A program made the translations under genes and the position numbers. Shown here piece by piece: positions 1,833 through 8,987 of a stretch of DNA of 11,954 bases (position 1 is its first letter; each line of letters begins with the position of its first letter). This DNA comes from a virus, in UHGV virus genome UHGV-2190786; one strand, given 5' to 3'. The notes beneath the pieces were generated by a model, which made no database searches, was not told where the DNA came from, and worked only from the letters and a program-made list of their open reading frames with translations.

Positions 1833-2311
1833 TGGAAATAAAGCTCATCGATAATCCGGTGAAGCTTGCAGAATTCCTCAACAACCCGGCAAACACGGGA
1901 AATATCGTAGACAGTGGAGACAAATACTACATCAAGCCTGATGCGGTATACCTCGGCATCTACGAAGGACTGATGCTGGTCGGAGTGCATGAAGTGCGTA
2001 ACTTCTGGCATAGCGTTGTTGAATGCCATGCGGTGTACGACCCCGGATTCCGTGGCGAATATGCACTGCAAGGGCATCGATTATTCTGCAAATGGCTTCT
2101 CGAAAACTCACCATTCCTTAACAGCATCACTATGGTTCCTGACACCACGAAATACGGACGGGCAATTATCCGTTTGCTTGGCGCTACCCGTGTTGGTCAC
2201 CTTGATGATGCTTATACCAGCAATGGAAAGCCTGTGGGCATCACGATTTATCAGTTACCGCGCTCAAAATACGAGGAGCTAACGAATGTTAATTTTCCAG
2301 ATTGCCAATAA
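1832..2311 (+). CDS. gp14-like protein (by position in the P22 late operon), about 159 aa
   Basis: The ORF starts at an ATG that overlaps the tail needle stop (TGATG at 1830-1834); the track begins one codon earlier at a GTG (1829). Size and position match P22 gene 14. Product is assigned by synteny only. Confidence 0.65.
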   Translation: MEIKLIDNPVKLAEFLNNPANTGNIVDSGDKYYIKPDAVYLGIYEGLMLVGVHEVRNFWHSVVECHAVYDPGFRGEYALQGHRLFCKWLLENSPFLNSITMVPDTTKYGRAIIRLLGATRVGHLDDAYTSNGKPVGITIYQLPRSKYEELTNVNFPDCQ

Positions 2312-2939
2312 GCACCTCAGCAAAGCTGTTTACTGCAAAGGTGGCAGTGATGGCGGTTCAAAGGCACAGGCACGCGCAACTGAAAAGGGCATCGAATTGC
2401 AGCGTGAAATGTGGCAGACGAACATGCAAAACCTTGCACCGTTCACGCCACTCGCTCAGCAGTACGTATCACAGTTGCAAAATCTTTCCTCTCTTCAGGG
2501 GCAAGGTCAGGCGCTTAACCAGTATTACAACTCCCAGCAGTACAAAGACCTTGCAGGTCAGGCGCGTTACCAGAGTCTGGCAGCAGCAGAGGCAACGGGT
2601 GGATTAGGCTCTACAGCAACAGGAAACCAGTTAGCAGCAATCGCACCTACACTCGGTCAAAACTGGCTGTCAGGTCAGATGAACAACTACAACAATCTGG
2701 CAAATATCGGCCTTGGCGCTCTTACAGGTCAGGCAAACGCCGGGCAGAACTATGCCAACAACGTCAGCCAATTGTATCAACAGCAGGCGGCAGCATCTGC
2801 GGCTAATGCGAATAAACCATCAGGATTTCAGAGCGCCCTGGGTGGAGCGGCAGCAGGTGCAGCTGCAGGTACTGCAATCATGCCTGGTTGGGGTACAGCA
2901 ATTGGTGCTGGCGTCGGTCTTCTTGGTTCACTTTTTTAA
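2286..2939 (+). CDS. Ejection (DNA-injection) protein, gp7-like, 217 aa
   Basis: ATG at 2286 is preceded by GAGGAG about 7 nt upstream and overlaps the end of the previous gene by 26 nt. The protein is Gln/Asn/Gly/Ala-rich low complexity with a hydrophobic glycine-zipper C-terminus (GGAAAGAAAGTAIMPGWGTAIGAGVGLLGSLF). Position and size match P22 gene 7. Confidence 0.75.
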   Translation: MLIFQIANKHLSKAVYCKGGSDGGSKAQARATEKGIELQREMWQTNMQNLAPFTPLAQQYVSQLQNLSSLQGQGQALNQYYNSQQYKDLAGQARYQSLAAAEATGGLGSTATGNQLAAIAPTLGQNWLSGQMNNYNNLANIGLGALTGQANAGQNYANNVSQLYQQQAAASAANANKPSGFQSALGGAAAGAAAGTAIMPGWGTAIGAGVGLLGSLF

Positions 2940-2951
2940 TGGAGGTGTCTC

Positions 2952-4364
2952 TTGGCTACATGGCAACAGGCTGGTAATTCAGGCGCGCTTCTTGCCGGGT
3001 TAGGCGGCATGAACTCCAACGCTCCAAGAGCAAGTGATGCAGACGCCACGCTTGCATACATTCGACAGAATAACGAGATGGAGCGTTCAGGACGTAATAA
3101 CGTTGGCTTGCAGGCTTTGCAGGGCATTTCATCTGTCATGGATATGTATAAGCAGATGGATCAGCAGAAGCGACAGCAAGAGTTTCAGCAGGCTTATGCT
3201 GATGCATATACATCTGGTGACCGCGATGCAATGCGAAAACTGGCATCACAGTATCCTGAGCAGTTTGACGCCGTAAGAAACGGCATGAAATTTGTCGATG
3301 AAGACCAGCGTTCCACTGTCGGTACACTGGCAGCAAGTGCCAGACTCGCAGCTTCATCTCCAGAAGCCATGATGTCATGGTTGCAGAACAACTCATCTGA
3401 GCTTACTCGTGCCGGAGTAGACCCTCTGGATGTGGCGAAAATGTATCAGCAAAATCCACAAGGTTTCACAGAGTTTGTTGATCACCTTGGGATGGCTGCG
3501 CTTGGTCCGATTGATTACTTCAATGTTCAGGACAAGATGGCTGGTCGGGATATTGAGCGTGGCGAGTTGGCAGAGACAATCCGCAGCAATCAGGCTGGAG
3601 AAGTACTTCAGGCGAGAGGGCAAAATCTTTCCTATCAGTCAGCAATGACTGGGCACAACATCGCAGCGCAACGCTTGGCTCTGGATCAGCAAGAGTTCGG
3701 GTTTAAGATGCAGCAAGCGCAGGAAAAGGCTCAGCAGTTGATTAGCGAAGCACCTAAGCTGTCAGTAAACATGGAAAAAGGCATCGAGACGGCTGTAAAC
3801 AATGCTACAGCATCATCAAACTCAGCCAATTCTATGAGTGCGCTTGCTCAACAGTTCAGAGCAGAAAAACCAACGACAGGTTTGTTCGGTAACGCACAGA
3901 ACATGTTCGCAAAACTTACCGGAAGCGATACGACATTGCGTGATTTGCGCATTCGCCAAAATGCCCTTGTTAACAGTCAGGTTCTTAAATTCCTACCTCC
4001 CGGACCAGCAACGGATAAAGACGTTGAGATCGTTCGACAGGGTGCGCCAACTGACATGGATAACCCTGAGACGGTCGCAAGATGGCTTGATGCAATGGCA
4101 AACCTTGAGCGACGAAACGCGCAGTTTAATGAGTTTAAAGCCGAGTGGATGAGCGCGAATGGCAACCCTGGACAATCGCGTAATGGCGGTCAGATATTGG
4201 GGTTGGATGTTAAAAAAGGTGAATCATTGGGGAGTGCCGTTAAGCGGTATATGTCAATGAATACTGACGCAGCGCCAGCACAAGATTCGACACCTTCAGG
4301 TGAACCACGGAATCAGGTTGGATCATATACCTCAAAATCAGGCATTCAATTTACGGTGGAATGA
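2952..4364 (+). CDS. Ejection (DNA-injection) protein, gp20-like, 470 aa
   Basis: A long ORF whose first in-frame start is TTG at 2952, 6 nt after a GGAGG Shine-Dalgarno (2941-2945). The next in-frame ATG is 19 codons downstream. Size (470 aa) and position match P22 gp20 (471 aa). Confidence 0.8.
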
Positions 4365-6208
4365 TGAAAGTAACTGCAAACGGTAAGACATTTACCTTTC
4401 CTGATGGTACGAGCACCGAAGATATTGGCACCGCCATTGATGAGTATTTTGCTGGTCAGGTTGTTCAGCAACAAACAGTTAATCAGGCCAATAATGCACC
4501 AACACGGGAAGAACCATCATTGATGCAACAAGCTGGCGATTGGCTCACTGGTGGTCAAAGTGCAGGGCAAATTGCAGAACAGGCTGGTCGTGGTCTGGTA
4601 AACATACCATTTGACGTATTGCAGGGTGGCGCAAGTCTGATTAATGCAATCAGCCAGGGGCTTGGTGGCCCCAAGGTTTTGGATGATGTTTATCGTCCAG
4701 TAGACAGACCGACAGACCCCTATGCTCAAGCTGGAGAAACAATTGGCGGGTATTTAGTTCCAGGAGTTGGAACGGCAGGAAGCATGGCTATTGGATCACT
4801 GGCAGAGGCCGCAAATCAGAAAGGTGATTTCGCGCAAAATGCAGCCATAAATGCCGGAGTTAACCTTGCCGCTCAGGGTGTTCTTTCCGCAGCAGCAAAG
4901 GGAATAGGGCGTGGAATAACGGCTATAAAAGGCGATATCGCGCCAGAAGTAGCGAAAAAAATTGCCACCTCAGAATCAATGGGGGTGACACCAATGACAT
5001 CTGATGTCATCCCACCGAAAAATGCTTTCACTCGTGGCCTTACTCAGGATGCCGAGGGGGCTTTGCTCGGGACAGGCTCAAAGCGAGCTGAGCAATATGC
5101 AACGCGTAGTAAGCTGGTAAGTAATTATTTTGACCGTTTTGGTGAGTACAACCCTGATGATGTGGTGAAATCTCTGACCACCACGTTAAGGGGGCGGAAG
5201 GATGCTGCTGGCGCTGTTATCAATGACGTCACCAATAAAATGGGTAATGCCGCAGTTGATACCACAAACACTATGAATGCTCTGAATACAGCGATCGCAA
5301 GACAGGAACGGCTTGGGACGTCTGCCAATCAAAGCCTGCTTACATCCTTGCGTAACCTACGTGAAGAATTAGCAAACCCTGCAACTGATTTGGATGTTAC
5401 GTTTGATCTCTTGCGTCAGCACAGAACAGCATTTAGATCTAATGTTCAGGGAGATGCTATGGTCTTCCCCAACCAGGCAAAAGCAGCTACCAATATGGTA
5501 GAGAATGCAATGTCAAAAGACCTTCGTAACGCAGTTGCAAAAAACCTCGGTGCGTCAGACGCAGCAAAATACCTTAAAGCAAATTCCGATTATGCAAACG
5601 TTTATAATAAGGTGCTTAATAAAAACATTGCTAACAAGCTCAACAAGGCAAGCAGTGAAGCCAGTCCTGAACTTATAAATACTGTTGTATTAAGCAGAAA
5701 ACCATCTGACGTGAAACGAATCTGGAGCGCATTGGATGATAAAGGGAAAGATGCTATGCGTGCAGCTTACGTCAGCAAAATAGCGGAAAAGGCCGGTGAC
5801 TCTCCAGCCAAGTTCATCACTGAAGTTAATAAGCTGAAATCTCAGTCAGGTGGTGAAATTTACAACACTATTTTTTCTGGAAAGCACATGAAAGAGCTTG
5901 ATTCTCTTCATGAAGTTCTACAGAAAACAGCAAGGTCAGACACCGCAAATGTAGTAACTCAGACGGGGCAATCGCAAGCCAACAGGATAAGGACGATTGG
6001 CGCAACTGCGACTCTTGGCGTATCAATGGGGCTTGAGGCTGGTTTCGGTGCAATCATGCGCTTGTATGAGTCCAAAGCAGCAAGGAATGCTCTCTTACGT
6101 TTGGCAAACACCAAAGCAGGAACACCTGCCTATGAAAGAGCGCTAAATAATGCTGCAAATGCGATACGCCCTATACTTTCAAGCCAAATTACAGCAGAAC
6201 AGCAATAA
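4361..6208 (+). CDS. Ejection (DNA-injection) protein, gp16-like, about 615 aa
   Basis: Tandem ATGs at 4361 and 4364 overlap the gp20 stop (TGA 4362-4364). The N-terminus [15 protein letters not shown] matches what I recall of P22 gp16, which argues for the second ATG (4364) as the true start. Size matches P22 gp16 (609 aa). Confidence 0.85.
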
Positions 6209-6222
6209 AAGATAAGATATAA

Positions 6223-6708
6223 CTACCTGATATTATTGCTACTGTTGCATGTTACCGTGTTTCCAAATCCTGAATTGCAGTTTGTATATGTGTCAACGCG
6301 TGTTGGGTAAGGTTGAGTTATAACAGGCTGGCGCGCTTTTTGCTCGATCGCTTGCATTGTGTTTACAGCCTGATAATTCAATAAAGCCTGCTGGAATGCT
6401 TGGCTTTGTGCTATTTGTTGGGCTTGTTCTTGGCTTTGTAATTGAACATAAAGATTATGAAGCTCAAGTCTTGCTTGTGCGTCACTTATCTTGCCTTCAT
6501 CGACACCTTGCCCGAGCATCTTTGCAGCAAGGACATACAGCTTAGGTGTTGGTGCTGATGCCATGCGTGAGTCGTTCTTCACACTGGCATCAAGGCAATT
6601 AGCCATATCGCTAAGCTTTTGATAGCGTTGTTCGCAACTTGCTTGATAGTCACTTACTTTTGCGCATCCAACCAGCAGAATCGGGATAATTAACAGTGAT
6701 TTTTTCAT
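6223..6708 (-). CDS. Predicted lipoprotein of unknown function (moron in the sieA slot), about 161 aa
   Basis: The start is taken at the ATG at 6708-6706, which has a strong Shine-Dalgarno (AAGGAGAG) about 8 nt upstream on the minus strand. The N-terminus MKKSLLIIPILLVGC is a type II signal peptide with lipobox LVGC; the +2 residue is Ala. It is followed by a Gln-rich predicted coiled-coil and a Cys-containing C-terminus. The track's longer ORF (to 6744) adds 12 residues with no ribosome-binding site. Confidence 0.7.
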   Translation of the reverse strand: MKKSLLIIPILLVGCAKVSDYQASCEQRYQKLSDMANCLDASVKNDSRMASAPTPKLYVLAAKMLGQGVDEGKISDAQARLELHNLYVQLQSQEQAQQIAQSQAFQQALLNYQAVNTMQAIEQKARQPVITQPYPTRVDTYTNCNSGFGNTVTCNSSNNIR

Positions 6709-6778
6709 ATGGTTAACTCTCCTTAGTTTTTCACAGGATATCATGAAGGCAATGCCATTTTAGCCGGAAACTAGATTT

Positions 6779-7045
6779 CTATGTTTCCTTTTTATTATTG
6801 CTATACATGGTCTTAAGCGTTTCAAAAACCATTTTCTTAACCATATCAGATTGTTGTTCTGCCATACGCTCTGCATCGTCAATGTAAACTGGTGCAGAGC
6901 TTTGTTTAGCCAATGATTCTTCAATCGCTGCAATTATCTCTGAGTTCAGCGACCTGTTATTCATCTTCGCACGCTGCTTAATTTTCGCGTGGAGTTCATG
7001 CGAAAGTCTCAAGTGAAACTGCGCCTCGTCGTATTTGCTGTACAT
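6779..7045 (-). CDS. mnt: Mnt-like ribbon-helix-helix repressor (Arc/MetJ superfamily), about 88 aa
   Basis: The stretch RAKMNNRSLNSEIIAAIEESLAK...DDAERMAEQQSDMVKKMVFETLKTMY aligns with my recollection of P22 Mnt (RAEANGRSMNSELLQIVQDALSK...NDAERLADEQSELVKKMVFDTLKDLY). The start at ATG 7045-7043 (MYSKYDEAQFHL...) matches the P22 Mnt N-terminus; the upstream ATG at 7078 would give 99 aa and cannot be excluded. Confidence 0.85.
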   Translation of the reverse strand: MYSKYDEAQFHLRLSHELHAKIKQRAKMNNRSLNSEIIAAIEESLAKQSSAPVYIDDAERMAEQQSDMVKKMVFETLKTMYSNNKKET

Positions 7046-7118
7046 CCTTGATGCCTCACCAGTTGGGTGGAATGGCATCGTAACCTACTGGATAAATACT
7101 CAATAGTACCATTTCGGT

Positions 7119-7141
7119 ATGCAATCACATCATGGTTGCAT
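7119..7141. promoter_or_regulatory. Candidate operator: inverted repeat ATGCAA-N11-TTGCAT in the mnt/tailspike divergent intergenic region
   Basis: A perfect 6-bp inverted repeat separated by 11 bp sits in the short gap between the mnt start and the tailspike start. Calling it an Mnt operator is inference; it does not resemble the P22 O_mnt sequence as I recall it. Confidence 0.25.
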
Positions 7142-7166
7142 CATATCATTCGTCTGGAGTAATGAA

Positions 7167-8987
7167 ATGTCAGATATCACCGCAAATGTTGTGGTAAGCA
7201 TGCCTTCGCAACTCTTCACTATGGCTCGTTCTTTTAAAGCCGTAGCTAATGGAAAGATTTATATCGGAAAAATTGACACTGATCCGGTAAATACTGAAAA
7301 CCAGATCCAGGTTTATGTGGAGAACGAAGACGGCTCTCATGTTCCTGTATCGCAACCAATCATCATTAACGCTGCTGGTTACCCGGTATATAACGGACAG
7401 ATTGCCAAGTTCGTAACTGTGCAAGGCCATTCTATGGCTGTTTATGATGCATATGGGGCGCAGCAGTTCTATTTTCCTAATGTGTTGAAGTACGACCCTG
7501 ACCAGGGAATTATCAGGTTAAAAGAAGAAATTGCGAAAGATGATGGAGAGAAATATATCGGAATATGCCCTGACGTTTCTACGCTCAGAACAATTGAGCC
7601 ATCATTCGTCGGGCAAAATATAACTGTTCGTGGATACTACTCTGACACACCCGGGCTTGGGGGAGGAACGTTTATAGCCTTTTCCAGTTCTGAAGCTGAC
7701 GATGGTGTGAATATTTTTGTTACCCCCGGCGGTAAGCGATGGAAGAGAGCAGGAAGCCACATCGATATTCCGGTAGAGAACGGTGGCATGATGACATCAT
7801 GTACGGCTGAGCAAAACAGTGAAGCCTTTGAACGCCTGACTGCATGCCTTCCATATGAAGGAGGTACGCTCAGACTCAATGGATTTTACGATATTAAGTA
7901 TGGCGCTATCGTGCCTCCACGTGTCACGCTGGAGGGGTGCGGTATGGATTCCTGTGGATTAATTAAAACAGGTAACGATATTAAAACCGTTCCGGATCGC
8001 ATGTGGCAGGGTGTACCACACAGCTTCTCCAAAGACTTTATTGTTGCGGTAGATATGGATAGCGATACGTCTGGTAGTCCAAATGGTCCAGTAGGTAATC
8101 AAGTCAGAAGCACCAGAATAATTGGATTGAGCTTAATATGCTCATCCATCACTCCATGCGCATTCGGGATCTATTCCAGTATCAGTTATGACGTCAGGCT
8201 ACAAGATTTATACGTAAAAAACGTAGGTATTGGATATCGTACCAGCGATAGTTGGCTGCAGTCATGGTCAACTATAACAGTTGAGAATGTTAATAAGGGA
8301 TTTTTTGTTGAAAATGGAGGTACATCATTCAATATATCAAATACTTATGTTAAAAATGCGTCATCAATTGCTTATCATTTTGTTAATATAACATACAGTA
8401 CGCTGACATGTACGGCAGCAGATTATATTAATGGCTCTGCTTATGCCTTTTTGGGCTGCACAAGTATAGTTATGAATGGGTGTGGGGCAGAGAATATAAC
8501 TGGTAGTGCTTTTGAGTGCAACCAGTCAAGAGTTACCATTAACTCTTTTAGAGGAGTGAAGTTTTTTGATGCTGGTAATATAGCTTGCATATTTACACAG
8601 TGTGCAATAGTAATGAGCGCTTGTTTTCTCCCTGAATTTGATGGTTCTTTTTCAAGTAAGTATTTTGAGCTTAATGATTCAACGATCAATCTGAACAATA
8701 CCGTTTGCCCGGATGCATCGAGAGTAAAATGGGGCGAGACAGCAGTGTCATGGATAAATTTCTCAAACTATGGCGGAAACTATACAATCTGGGGCGTTAC
8801 TGCTTGGACCGCAACAGGGTTCCTCGTAAATGGAATTGCTCATGTCTATGCGGAATTACCTCCTGATTCCTCTGTCACACAGTTTAGCCAAGGTGCTAGA
8901 TGGGAGCTGATAAGACCCACAGCTGGGAATAACTATAAATGGATTCATACCGGCGGAGGAGTCTGGAGAGCGGCAGGTAGTATATAA
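7167..8987 (+). CDS. Tailspike protein: P22 gp9-like N-terminal head-binding domain fused to a divergent beta-helix receptor-binding domain, 606 aa
   Basis: The start is ATG 7167, preceded by GGAG at 7156-7159. The N-terminus [42 protein letters not shown]...[13 protein letters not shown]...NVLKYDPDQ matches the P22 tailspike head-binding domain as I recall it. The remainder has a repetitive, Cys-rich N-x-S/T pattern typical of a parallel beta-helix and is not P22-like. The track's extension back to 7119 has no ribosome-binding site and no homology. Confidence 0.9.

Follow-up and report, generated by a model that had tools for sequence, protein, structure and literature searches.

The mnt gene that stands alone beside the tailspike gene in the window (by which we mean the whole stretch of DNA analysed, 11,954 nucleotides) is, judged by its alleles in related loci, under purifying selection rather than a relic. 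We regard it as an evenly balanced proposition that it belongs to a working 'orphan' Mnt module, of the known mnt-only 'ant moron' form, in which Mnt acts at its own promoter region. The lone-mnt arrangement is published and common, and the module is already present in sequenced phages; the window represents it, by sequence comparison, with a member that has a different candidate operator specificity.

Villafane et al. (2008, PMC2629481) gave the name 'ant moron' to the region from gene 16 to the tailspike gene. In ST64T, ST104 and Para1, according to the same paper, it holds only mnt and one gene without known function, and for the mnt-only form found in ST64T, ST104 and L the question of 'new function or remnant' has already been posed (PMC2629481; 10.1101/2020.10.05.325894). 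Since it had already been described for phages L and ST64T, the lone-mnt layout is ordinary. The window covers the end of the late region of a P22-like (Lederbergvirus) prophage, with the following features:

Left of the gene 16 homologue: tail-needle and ejection genes.
4361-6208, plus strand: gene 16 homologue.
6223-6708, minus strand: lipoprotein-like gene, 161 aa, signal peptide with an LLVGC lipobox.
6779-7045, minus strand: mnt homologue, 88 aa, stop codon at 6779-6781, with Pfam and PDB matches.
7046-7078, minus strand: probable mnt 5′ leader, as read from the sequence.
7050-7079: inverted repeat GATGCC...GGCATC, inner stem CACC/GGTG, in the mnt leader and −10 region.
7077-7103, minus strand: predicted Pmnt, −35 TTGAGT (7103-7098), 15-nt spacer, −10 TACGAT (7082-7077).
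7105-7121: candidate Mnt operator AGTACCATTTCGGTATG, core TACC-N5-GGTA at 7107-7119.
7119-7141, plus strand: inverted repeat ATGCAA-N11-TTGCAT, with extended arms ATGCAATCA-N5-TGGTTGCAT, a possible hairpin in rightward RNA.
7167-8987, plus strand: tailspike gene, 606 aa, with a Head_binding domain and an independent gene call.
3′ of the tailspike gene: a gtrC-like gene, then gtrB and gtrA.

The module thus occupies the position between the gene 16 and tailspike homologues that is expected of a mnt-only ant moron, and in moron-less phages homology to the window starts only at about 7151. An identical Mnt protein in the same gene order is encoded on an NCBI E. coli-type contig, on which the gtrA end adjoins host ybhB/bioA. 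As in the Salmonella phages L, ST64T, ST104 and ST160, mnt is placed between gene 16 and the tailspike gene, which it directly abuts in divergent orientation, and arc, ant and sar are missing; orientation and genome slot are those of P22 mnt.

The open reading frame at 6779-7078 matches Pfam PF03869 (Arc, 1e-12) and PF11423 (Repressor_Mnt, 3.9e-12), while among solved Mnt structures 1MNT was matched at 1.6e-17 (residues 6-78 of the homologue) and 1QEY, the peptide for C-terminal tetramerisation, at 1.1e-6 (residues 56-83). By these matches the protein has a ribbon-helix-helix domain at its N-terminus and the tetramerisation region of Mnt at its C-terminus, and it would share fold and C-terminal domain with P22 Mnt at 46% identity, in good agreement with the sequence-only reading, which had called the homologue conserved up to and including its C-terminal oligomerisation region. 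Database labels for the gene are 'partition protein ATPase', 'Arc family DNA-binding protein' or none; labels of the 'partition protein ATPase' type are corrected by the identification as Mnt. We place the start at the ATG at 7045 from alignment with Mnt of P22, L, Gally, CUS-3, VSe13 and JEP4. The same start was chosen by PGAP, by the VSe13 annotators and by an independent gene call, and on these grounds the 99-aa frame that starts at 7078 was dropped for the 88-aa one. The in-frame upstream ATG (7076-7078) coincides with the predicted −10 region, or lies inside it, and probably does not serve as a start codon, and GAGG at 7054-7057 is the likely mnt ribosome-binding site. The inverted repeat at 7050-7079 is also found in L-type modules, with an inner stem CACTT/AAGTG; the minus-strand RNA of 7040-7082 folds with −12.7 kcal/mol (z −2.0).

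The base-contacting positions of P22 Mnt, which we take from Sauer-lab work to be Arg2, His6, Asn8 and Arg10, align with Tyr5, Gln9, His11 and Arg13 of the window protein, so that three of the four are changed, just as had been noted earlier for the specificity residues; with the DNA-binding strand changed, a different operator is to be expected. The window protein also differs from that of L, in its recognition strand (YSKYDEAQFHLRL versus GRDDPQFNLRLP) and in an N-terminal arm that is two residues longer.

Because the mnt N-terminus aligns at 7045, the mnt and tailspike starts are 121 bp apart (7046-7166), close to the earlier estimate of about 120 bp. The tailspike start is at 7167 (MSDITANVV...), from where the N-terminus matches P22 gp9; the ribosome-binding site GGAG is at 7156-7159 and the Head_binding domain covers residues 1-113. 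A 622-aa tailspike frame from the ATG at 7119 was rejected, as it has no ribosome-binding site and is broken by a 1-nt deletion in one relative (L017). P22 Arc and Ant have no tblastn match anywhere in the window, and tblastn with the P22 and Kapi1 Arc and Ant proteins found nothing between mnt and the tailspike gene in the window and about 160 related loci, with the exception of one locus (L162). Likewise, neither sar nor any other Rfam family was found in 6000-7400 at E up to 1; a sar RNA would find no ant 5′ end to overlap in the window. The set that makes up a complete P22-type immI (arc and ant, sar, overlapping divergent Pant and Pmnt) is thus missing, as are the prerequisites for Pant repression by Mnt: the window has neither arc nor ant, and no rightward promoter rises above background. 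What is found is a mnt homologue without arc or ant, and the description of immI as cut down to a lone mnt beside the tailspike gene holds. Compared with P22, the window is without arc, ant, sar and Oarc, and its Pant counterpart has degenerated.

A perfect inverted repeat, ATGCAA-N11-TTGCAT, had been reported in the gap and put forward as the operator. The repeat is there, precisely at 7119-7141, and its arms can be lengthened to 9 nt around a 5-nt loop. That Mnt uses it as operator, with a tailspike-side promoter in the gap under its control, is nevertheless very improbable in our judgement: its location, an RNA fold better than that of shuffled sequences (−9.4 kcal/mol, z −3.5) and an overlapping, very weak rightward promoter-like match (ATGCAA-19-TATCAT, score 4.9) speak for it, but such repeats are common by chance and the promoter score is far below background. 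With a loop of 3-20 nt allowed, a perfect 6-bp inverted repeat occurs in 34% of shuffled 121-mers and in 44% of real 121-bp tiles of the window, and a 9-bp one in 13% of shuffled and 21% of real 121-bp stretches. Moreover, the repeat is missing in the 132- and 135-bp junction classes (L033/L078, L054/L082/L083, VSe13, JEP4), in which the N-terminal DNA-binding segment of Mnt is near-identical to that of the window, and within the 121-bp class some variants keep the stem and others break it. To the right of ...GGTATG(C/T)AA the sequence differs between junction classes that have the same Mnt DNA-binding domain. Finally, the arm spacing is unlike that of the P22 and L operators. Chance-level frequency, absence from relatives with the same DNA-binding domain and wrong geometry together make 7119-7141 probably wrong as the Mnt operator.

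On comparison of the control regions, the site at 7105-7121 is probably the better operator candidate. The P22 mnt operator, AGGTCCACGGTGGACCT, is taken here as marked in the GenBank record; the Pmnt −35 (TTGAGA, on the other strand) is 1 nt from it. Where P22 reads ...TCTCAAT-AGGTCCACGGTGGACCT, the window reads ...ACTCAAT-AGTACCATTTCGGTATG; in the mnt-only L and ST160 the corresponding stretch is ...CCACAAT-AAGACCACCGTGGTCTT, a 17-bp palindrome without mismatches. The candidate can therefore be aligned in every column with the annotated P22 operator and the phage L palindrome, and it sits 1 nt from the predicted Pmnt −35, which reproduces the P22 geometry of −35, 1-nt gap and 17-bp operator. 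The columns CAAT, CC and GG are invariant in all six aligned control regions. Across 172 loci the site has the form (A/C)GTACC(A/G)TTTNGGTA(T/C)G, and it is kept in all junction classes (121, 132 and 135 bp) and also in Escherichia sp., Serratia and Salmonella-phage relatives. Its symmetry in the window is limited to TACC/GGTA and reaches 5-6 bp in some relatives, which have perfect arms (GTACC-N5-GGTAC, CGTACC-N5-GGTACG); the right half-site is imperfect (GGTATG) and variable in about 10% of loci, e.g. TGTA in 13. The core TACC-N5-GGTA is accordingly less symmetric than its L counterpart, AAGACCAC-C-GTGGTCTT.

The half-site differs by recognition-strand class: AGGTCCAC with the P22-type H/N/R, AAGACCAC with the L-type Q/N/R and (A/C)GTACC with the window-type Q/H/R. 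For a formal test of co-variation, the 8 loci given by the species-level genome scan are too few. Together with three of the four base-contacting residues, the operator sequence has thus changed relative to P22. With a likely operator named, and a half-site that shifts with the recognition strand, P22, L and the window type form a natural series for the study of ribbon-helix-helix specificity. The 17-mer AGTACCATTTCGGTATG, with up to 3 mismatches, is present as a single copy in the whole Sf101 genome and as a single copy in the prophage of E. coli O26:H11 11368. In neither of these two elements is there an annotated ant gene elsewhere that would be under Mnt control, and Rha-family regulators near the lysis genes of both were rejected as such, having no operator beside them. 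A second TACC-N5-GGTA in the window, at 5488-5500 inside gene 16, is confined to one gene 16 allele, with which it travels, and is therefore probably due to chance.

For promoters we used a simple sigma-70 weight-matrix scan and a consensus scanner. The matrix recovers P22 Pant (TTGACA-17-TATATT, 16.7) and Pmnt (TTGAGA-17-TATCAT, 14.3). The predicted Pmnt of the window scores 8.5, by itself no better than shuffled sequence, and its assignment is supported by its position as the counterpart of P22 Pmnt rather than by the score. Counterparts elsewhere score 10.5 in L (TTGTGG-17-TATGAT), 11.7 in Gally and 9.2 in VSe13 and Serratia (TTGTTG-17-TACGAT), and in every mnt-only module the Pmnt counterpart is the best or near-best leftward match. 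The spacer is 15 nt in 101 loci, as in the window, and 17 nt in 66, as it is in L; the homologous mnt leader, the Pmnt counterpart and a dyad operator 1 nt from the −35 are shared with L and ST160. Rightward, no weight-matrix match in mnt-only modules exceeds 6.9, the shuffle median being 8.6, and the Pant position in the window reads TGGAAT...ATAAAT, which is below background. We therefore consider Pant to have degenerated, which leaves the mnt-side promoter as the only recognisable one; a tailspike-side promoter, one of the Mnt targets suggested by the sequence-only reading, is not detectable in the weight-matrix scan. The consensus scan of the gap gave no promoter pair common to the other junction classes. 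It did give a leftward candidate, CTGACA-17-AATGAT at 7173-7145 (weight-matrix score 8.7), which we take to be chance because the score is at background level and the sequence is absent from the other junction classes.

The lipoprotein-like gene begins 70 nt downstream of mnt. It belongs to PHROG 6067, a family without assigned function, and has no Pfam match. Since there is neither a promoter above background nor a terminator between them, mnt and the lipoprotein gene probably form one transcript, so that the latter would be co-transcribed with mnt. Phage L has a terminator at this place, and Sf101- and IME10-type modules are, like L, without this cargo gene.

We propose, then, that of immI the window would retain mnt, the Pmnt counterpart (7103-7077) and a candidate operator of changed specificity (7105-7121) abutting the −35, whereas the strong rightward promoter Pant, arc, ant and sar are gone. 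Mnt, presumably a tetramer by analogy with P22, would bind the single site at 7105-7121 in the prophage and act on its own transcription unit, that is, on mnt and the lipoprotein gene, which would be expressed from the prophage. The tailspike gene would be read from the late operon that crosses the module and not from a promoter in the 121-bp gap. Homology, intactness, purifying selection, the position and conservation of the site, its single occurrence in two whole prophages and the absence of arc, ant and Pant are seen in the sequences; that Mnt binds, which promoters are used, that the two genes share a transcript and in which direction Pmnt is affected are points that we infer. In the P22 system, the site upstream of the −35 reportedly does not repress Pmnt (Sauer-lab in vitro work), and 'autoregulation' by Mnt may therefore amount to activation or to nothing at all. 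Also against action at the own promoter are the poor 15-nt spacer of Pmnt and its score, which is not above that of shuffled sequence. Furthermore, self-regulation alone does not account well for selection and operator co-variation in the cargo-less modules of Sf101, IME10 and L, and for this reason tailspike dosage or insulation, immunity in trans and the remnant option are kept as alternatives.

The wider distribution of the module bears on all of these. In mnt, the spacer and the tailspike 5′ end, Sf101 (NC_027398) and IME10 (NC_019501) are 93-95% identical to the window at the DNA level, and the P22-like prophage of E. coli O26:H11 11368 is 97.5% identical in the module; the 93-97.5% likeness of these three covers the mnt 5′ half, the control region and the tailspike 5′ end, and all share the 121-bp spacer. 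The module is found in 106 of 5,426 complete E. coli genomes. Among the 80 IMG/VR loci fetched with the window Mnt, the tailspike gene adjoins mnt in 79, the remaining one (L081) ending 43 bp upstream of mnt, and most of the loci with both starts mapped have the 121-bp spacer. Longer spacers were considered as possible hidden arc/ant and rejected, since they are explained by an HNH endonuclease gene after the first five tailspike codons or by a 1.3-kb insertion element. Further relatives were fetched with Mnt of the VSe13 type, whose DNA-binding domain is the same. VSe13 (MT932212) and JEP4 (MT740315) resemble the window in this domain and in the candidate operator; unlike the window, they have a different Mnt C-terminus, overlapping a terminator, and a 135-bp P22-type junction.

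It is improbable that mnt is a decaying immI remnant without present function, as the phage L genome paper allowed for lone mnt genes (10.1101/2020.10.05.325894). The normal Mnt targets are missing, one Citrobacter copy is a pseudogene and the window allele carries two rare substitutions, S15 and P52, all of which would fit decay. Against this, an intact mnt frame of 80-92 aa is present in 171 of 172 locus records (a handful of which come from the same contig fetched twice), in 66 or more distinct nucleotide alleles, and pN/pS is 0.07-0.29 for 66 distinct alleles compared with the window. The operator and the promoter counterpart are kept in elements of E. coli, Shigella, Salmonella and Serratia, and repressor and candidate operator appear to have changed together between classes; the sole pseudogene (L092) also has its left half-site mutated, from TACC to TACT. 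Of the two outcomes offered by the sequence-only reading, a new target or a remnant, the second is thereby largely set aside; as to the first, a tailspike promoter as the new target is not supported, none being detectable.

Immunity in trans is another way to explain selection on a repressor without a target of its own, and this is the established role of Mnt in P22 lysogens, where it represses the ant promoter of incoming phage. A resident Mnt would then repress the ant promoters of incoming related phages and prevent antirepressor-driven induction, and ant-type genes are indeed common among relatives in the same phage group. The layout of these relatives makes us doubt it strongly. Typically, gene 16 and sieA are followed by a second, leftward Mnt-like gene and a strong TTGACA promoter that carries a palindrome of its own, ATGACATCA-N3-TGATGTCAT; next come, rightward, Arc-like, Rha/Ant-like and KilA-like genes and a small ORF, then a bidirectional terminator, and after it the window-lineage mnt (leftward), its operator and the tailspike gene. 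The second immI-like cassette of JEP4-type relatives, which the window does not have, thus lies on the 3′ side of the window-lineage mnt and carries its own Mnt-like repressor and operator, and in all loci examined the window-type site was confined to the neighbourhood of window-type mnt and was not seen at any ant promoter. Many relatives thus do have arc/ant-like genes, but under regulators of their own.

The constant neighbour is the tailspike gene. In about 170 loci the Mnt lineage is always directly upstream of it, and it keeps this position even where the other side is taken by a second, complete immI cassette that has a Mnt-like repressor of its own. A fixed position together with purifying selection in cargo-less modules calls for a function that is tied to the place. 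One such function, which we hold to be unlikely, is that Mnt at 7105-7121, or collision of leftward transcription from Pmnt with rightward polymerases, tunes late-operon or read-through transcription into the tailspike gene, so that Mnt would regulate tailspike dosage and not an antirepressor. The distance from operator to tailspike start does not speak for this: it varies, with gaps of 121, 132 and 135 bp or, given an inserted HNH endonuclease gene, of hundreds of bp, and late transcription, being antiterminated, may run past a bound repressor. The more far-reaching possibility that Mnt of the L and window types is a dedicated regulator at the tailspike entrance, setting tailspike expression or insulating the gene from upstream transcription, we consider decidedly unlikely. 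In its favour, position, promoter and a co-evolving operator appear to have been kept through at least two changes of DNA specificity, even beside a complete second immI cassette; if true, it would mean a Mnt-family function independent of the antirepressor. Since Mnt stays next to the tailspike gene irrespective of what borders it on the far side, the question of new function or remnant becomes answerable by experiment, through tailspike expression and autoregulation.

How the lone mnt came about can be read in part from the junctions. The tailspike start follows the operator by 46 bp in the window and by about 1.4 kb in P22, and the sequence between the two sites differs between the window and L. 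Beyond the operator, L- and JEP4-type junctions continue as CACCGTAGCC, the sequence that lies 3′ of the ant terminator in P22, and in one relative (L162) a 3′ fragment of a P22-type ant is still found, together with the ant terminator, between operator and tailspike gene. It is therefore reasonable to suppose that the lone mnt arose by deletion of arc and ant from the stretch before the tailspike gene, and the comparison across relatives that had been called for makes this origin plausible. The lone-mnt state is old enough for specificity to have diversified. On the other side of the gene, VSe13 carries a truncated ant-like ORF 3′ of mnt.

Homology of the window to phages that lack the mnt-only 'ant moron' between gene 16 and the tailspike gene starts at around position 7151, just upstream of the tailspike gene (7167-8987). 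In other contigs, an identical Mnt protein is found beside quite different tailspikes, including one of the endosialidase type (seen when the tailspike of the window is set against locus L104, 1-1226); the mnt module and the receptor-binding part of the tailspike therefore recombine freely. In some relatives, HNH homing-endonuclease genes (166-179 aa) on the opposite strand separate the mnt module from the tailspike gene as insertions. In Kapi1, an HNH endonuclease is annotated at the same spot as in the other relatives.

HNH homing-endonuclease genes between mnt and the tailspike gene
L028 and L050: approximately 1950-3000, opposite strand
L037, L044, L051 and L061: approximately 1900-3000, opposite strand
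Kapi1 (L101): 743-1243, opposite strand

The inserted genes follow directly on codon five of the old tailspike start, with ATGTCAGATATCACC retained, and a new tailspike start is found downstream of the inserted genes. A different insertion, of approximately 1.3 kb, expands the mnt-tailspike spacer to 1457 bp in locus L046. Its insertion point is precisely the right-hand border of the candidate Mnt operator (7105-7121 in the window, core TACC-N5-GGTA), and a GTATG direct repeat flanks it. The terminal sequences, TGGA... and ...CCAGTCTA, point to an insertion sequence.

On the other side, 3' of this mnt, many of the relatives have another immI-like cassette, which comprises a second Mnt-like gene, Arc-like, Rha/Ant-like and KilA-like genes and a 73-aa ORF.

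Second immI-like cassettes in relatives
L119: 683-2980, reverse complement
JEP4 (L086): 2270-4189
L114 and L128: cassette also present

The cassette contains a TTGACA promoter with the palindrome ATGACATCA-N3-TGATGTCAT, and its end is formed by a bidirectional terminator sharing sequence with the final codons of this mnt. In the window, the gene next to mnt encodes a predicted lipoprotein:

6223-6708, minus strand: predicted lipoprotein, 161 aa (MKKSLLIIPILLVGC...), matching PHROG 6067 (unknown function)

The protein, which is Gln-rich in its middle region, has no Pfam match. Since its gene fills the slot held by sieA in P22, the product is a candidate for a surface or exclusion factor expressed by the prophage. 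In phages Gally and vB_EcoP-720R6 the gene also occurs, separately from mnt.

The window Mnt allele has Ser15 and Pro52 (codons 7003-7001 and 6892-6890), whereas most of the 84 Mnt copies of the first set have Pro15 (78 of 84) and Ser52. Position 15 corresponds in the alignment to Pro12 of P22 Mnt and comes directly after the recognition strand; it is likewise Thr or Ser in the Mnt proteins of VSe13, JEP4 and Serratia. The sole disrupted copy of this mnt (L092 from Citrobacter sp., 2501-2734) has a stop at codon 5, and upstream the left half-site of its candidate operator reads TACT instead of TACC, as though gene and site were decaying together.

A second TACC-N5-GGTA match (TACCAATATGGTA) lies within gene 16 at 5488-5500; a count of two such matches, as in the window, was reached in none of 200 shuffles. 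The site, however, goes with a single gene 16 allele; modules that have a different allele lack it. An inverted repeat, GATGCC...GGCATC (7050-7079), lies in the leader and -10 region of mnt; it has a CACC/GGTG inner stem and encloses the likely mnt ribosome-binding site. Modules of the phage L type share its outer arms but differ in the inner stem, with compensating changes (CACTT/AAGTG). The repeat might form a hairpin in the leader or serve as a binding site.

Beyond the tailspike gene, a 626-aa ORF (9032-10912, minus strand) shares 250 nt with gtrB. Translation of the GtrC-like protein probably starts at an internal Met at around 10666 (MKINTNV...), overlapping the gtrB stop, which yields a 544-aa product, as in an independent call (Pfam GT_STM0557_N).
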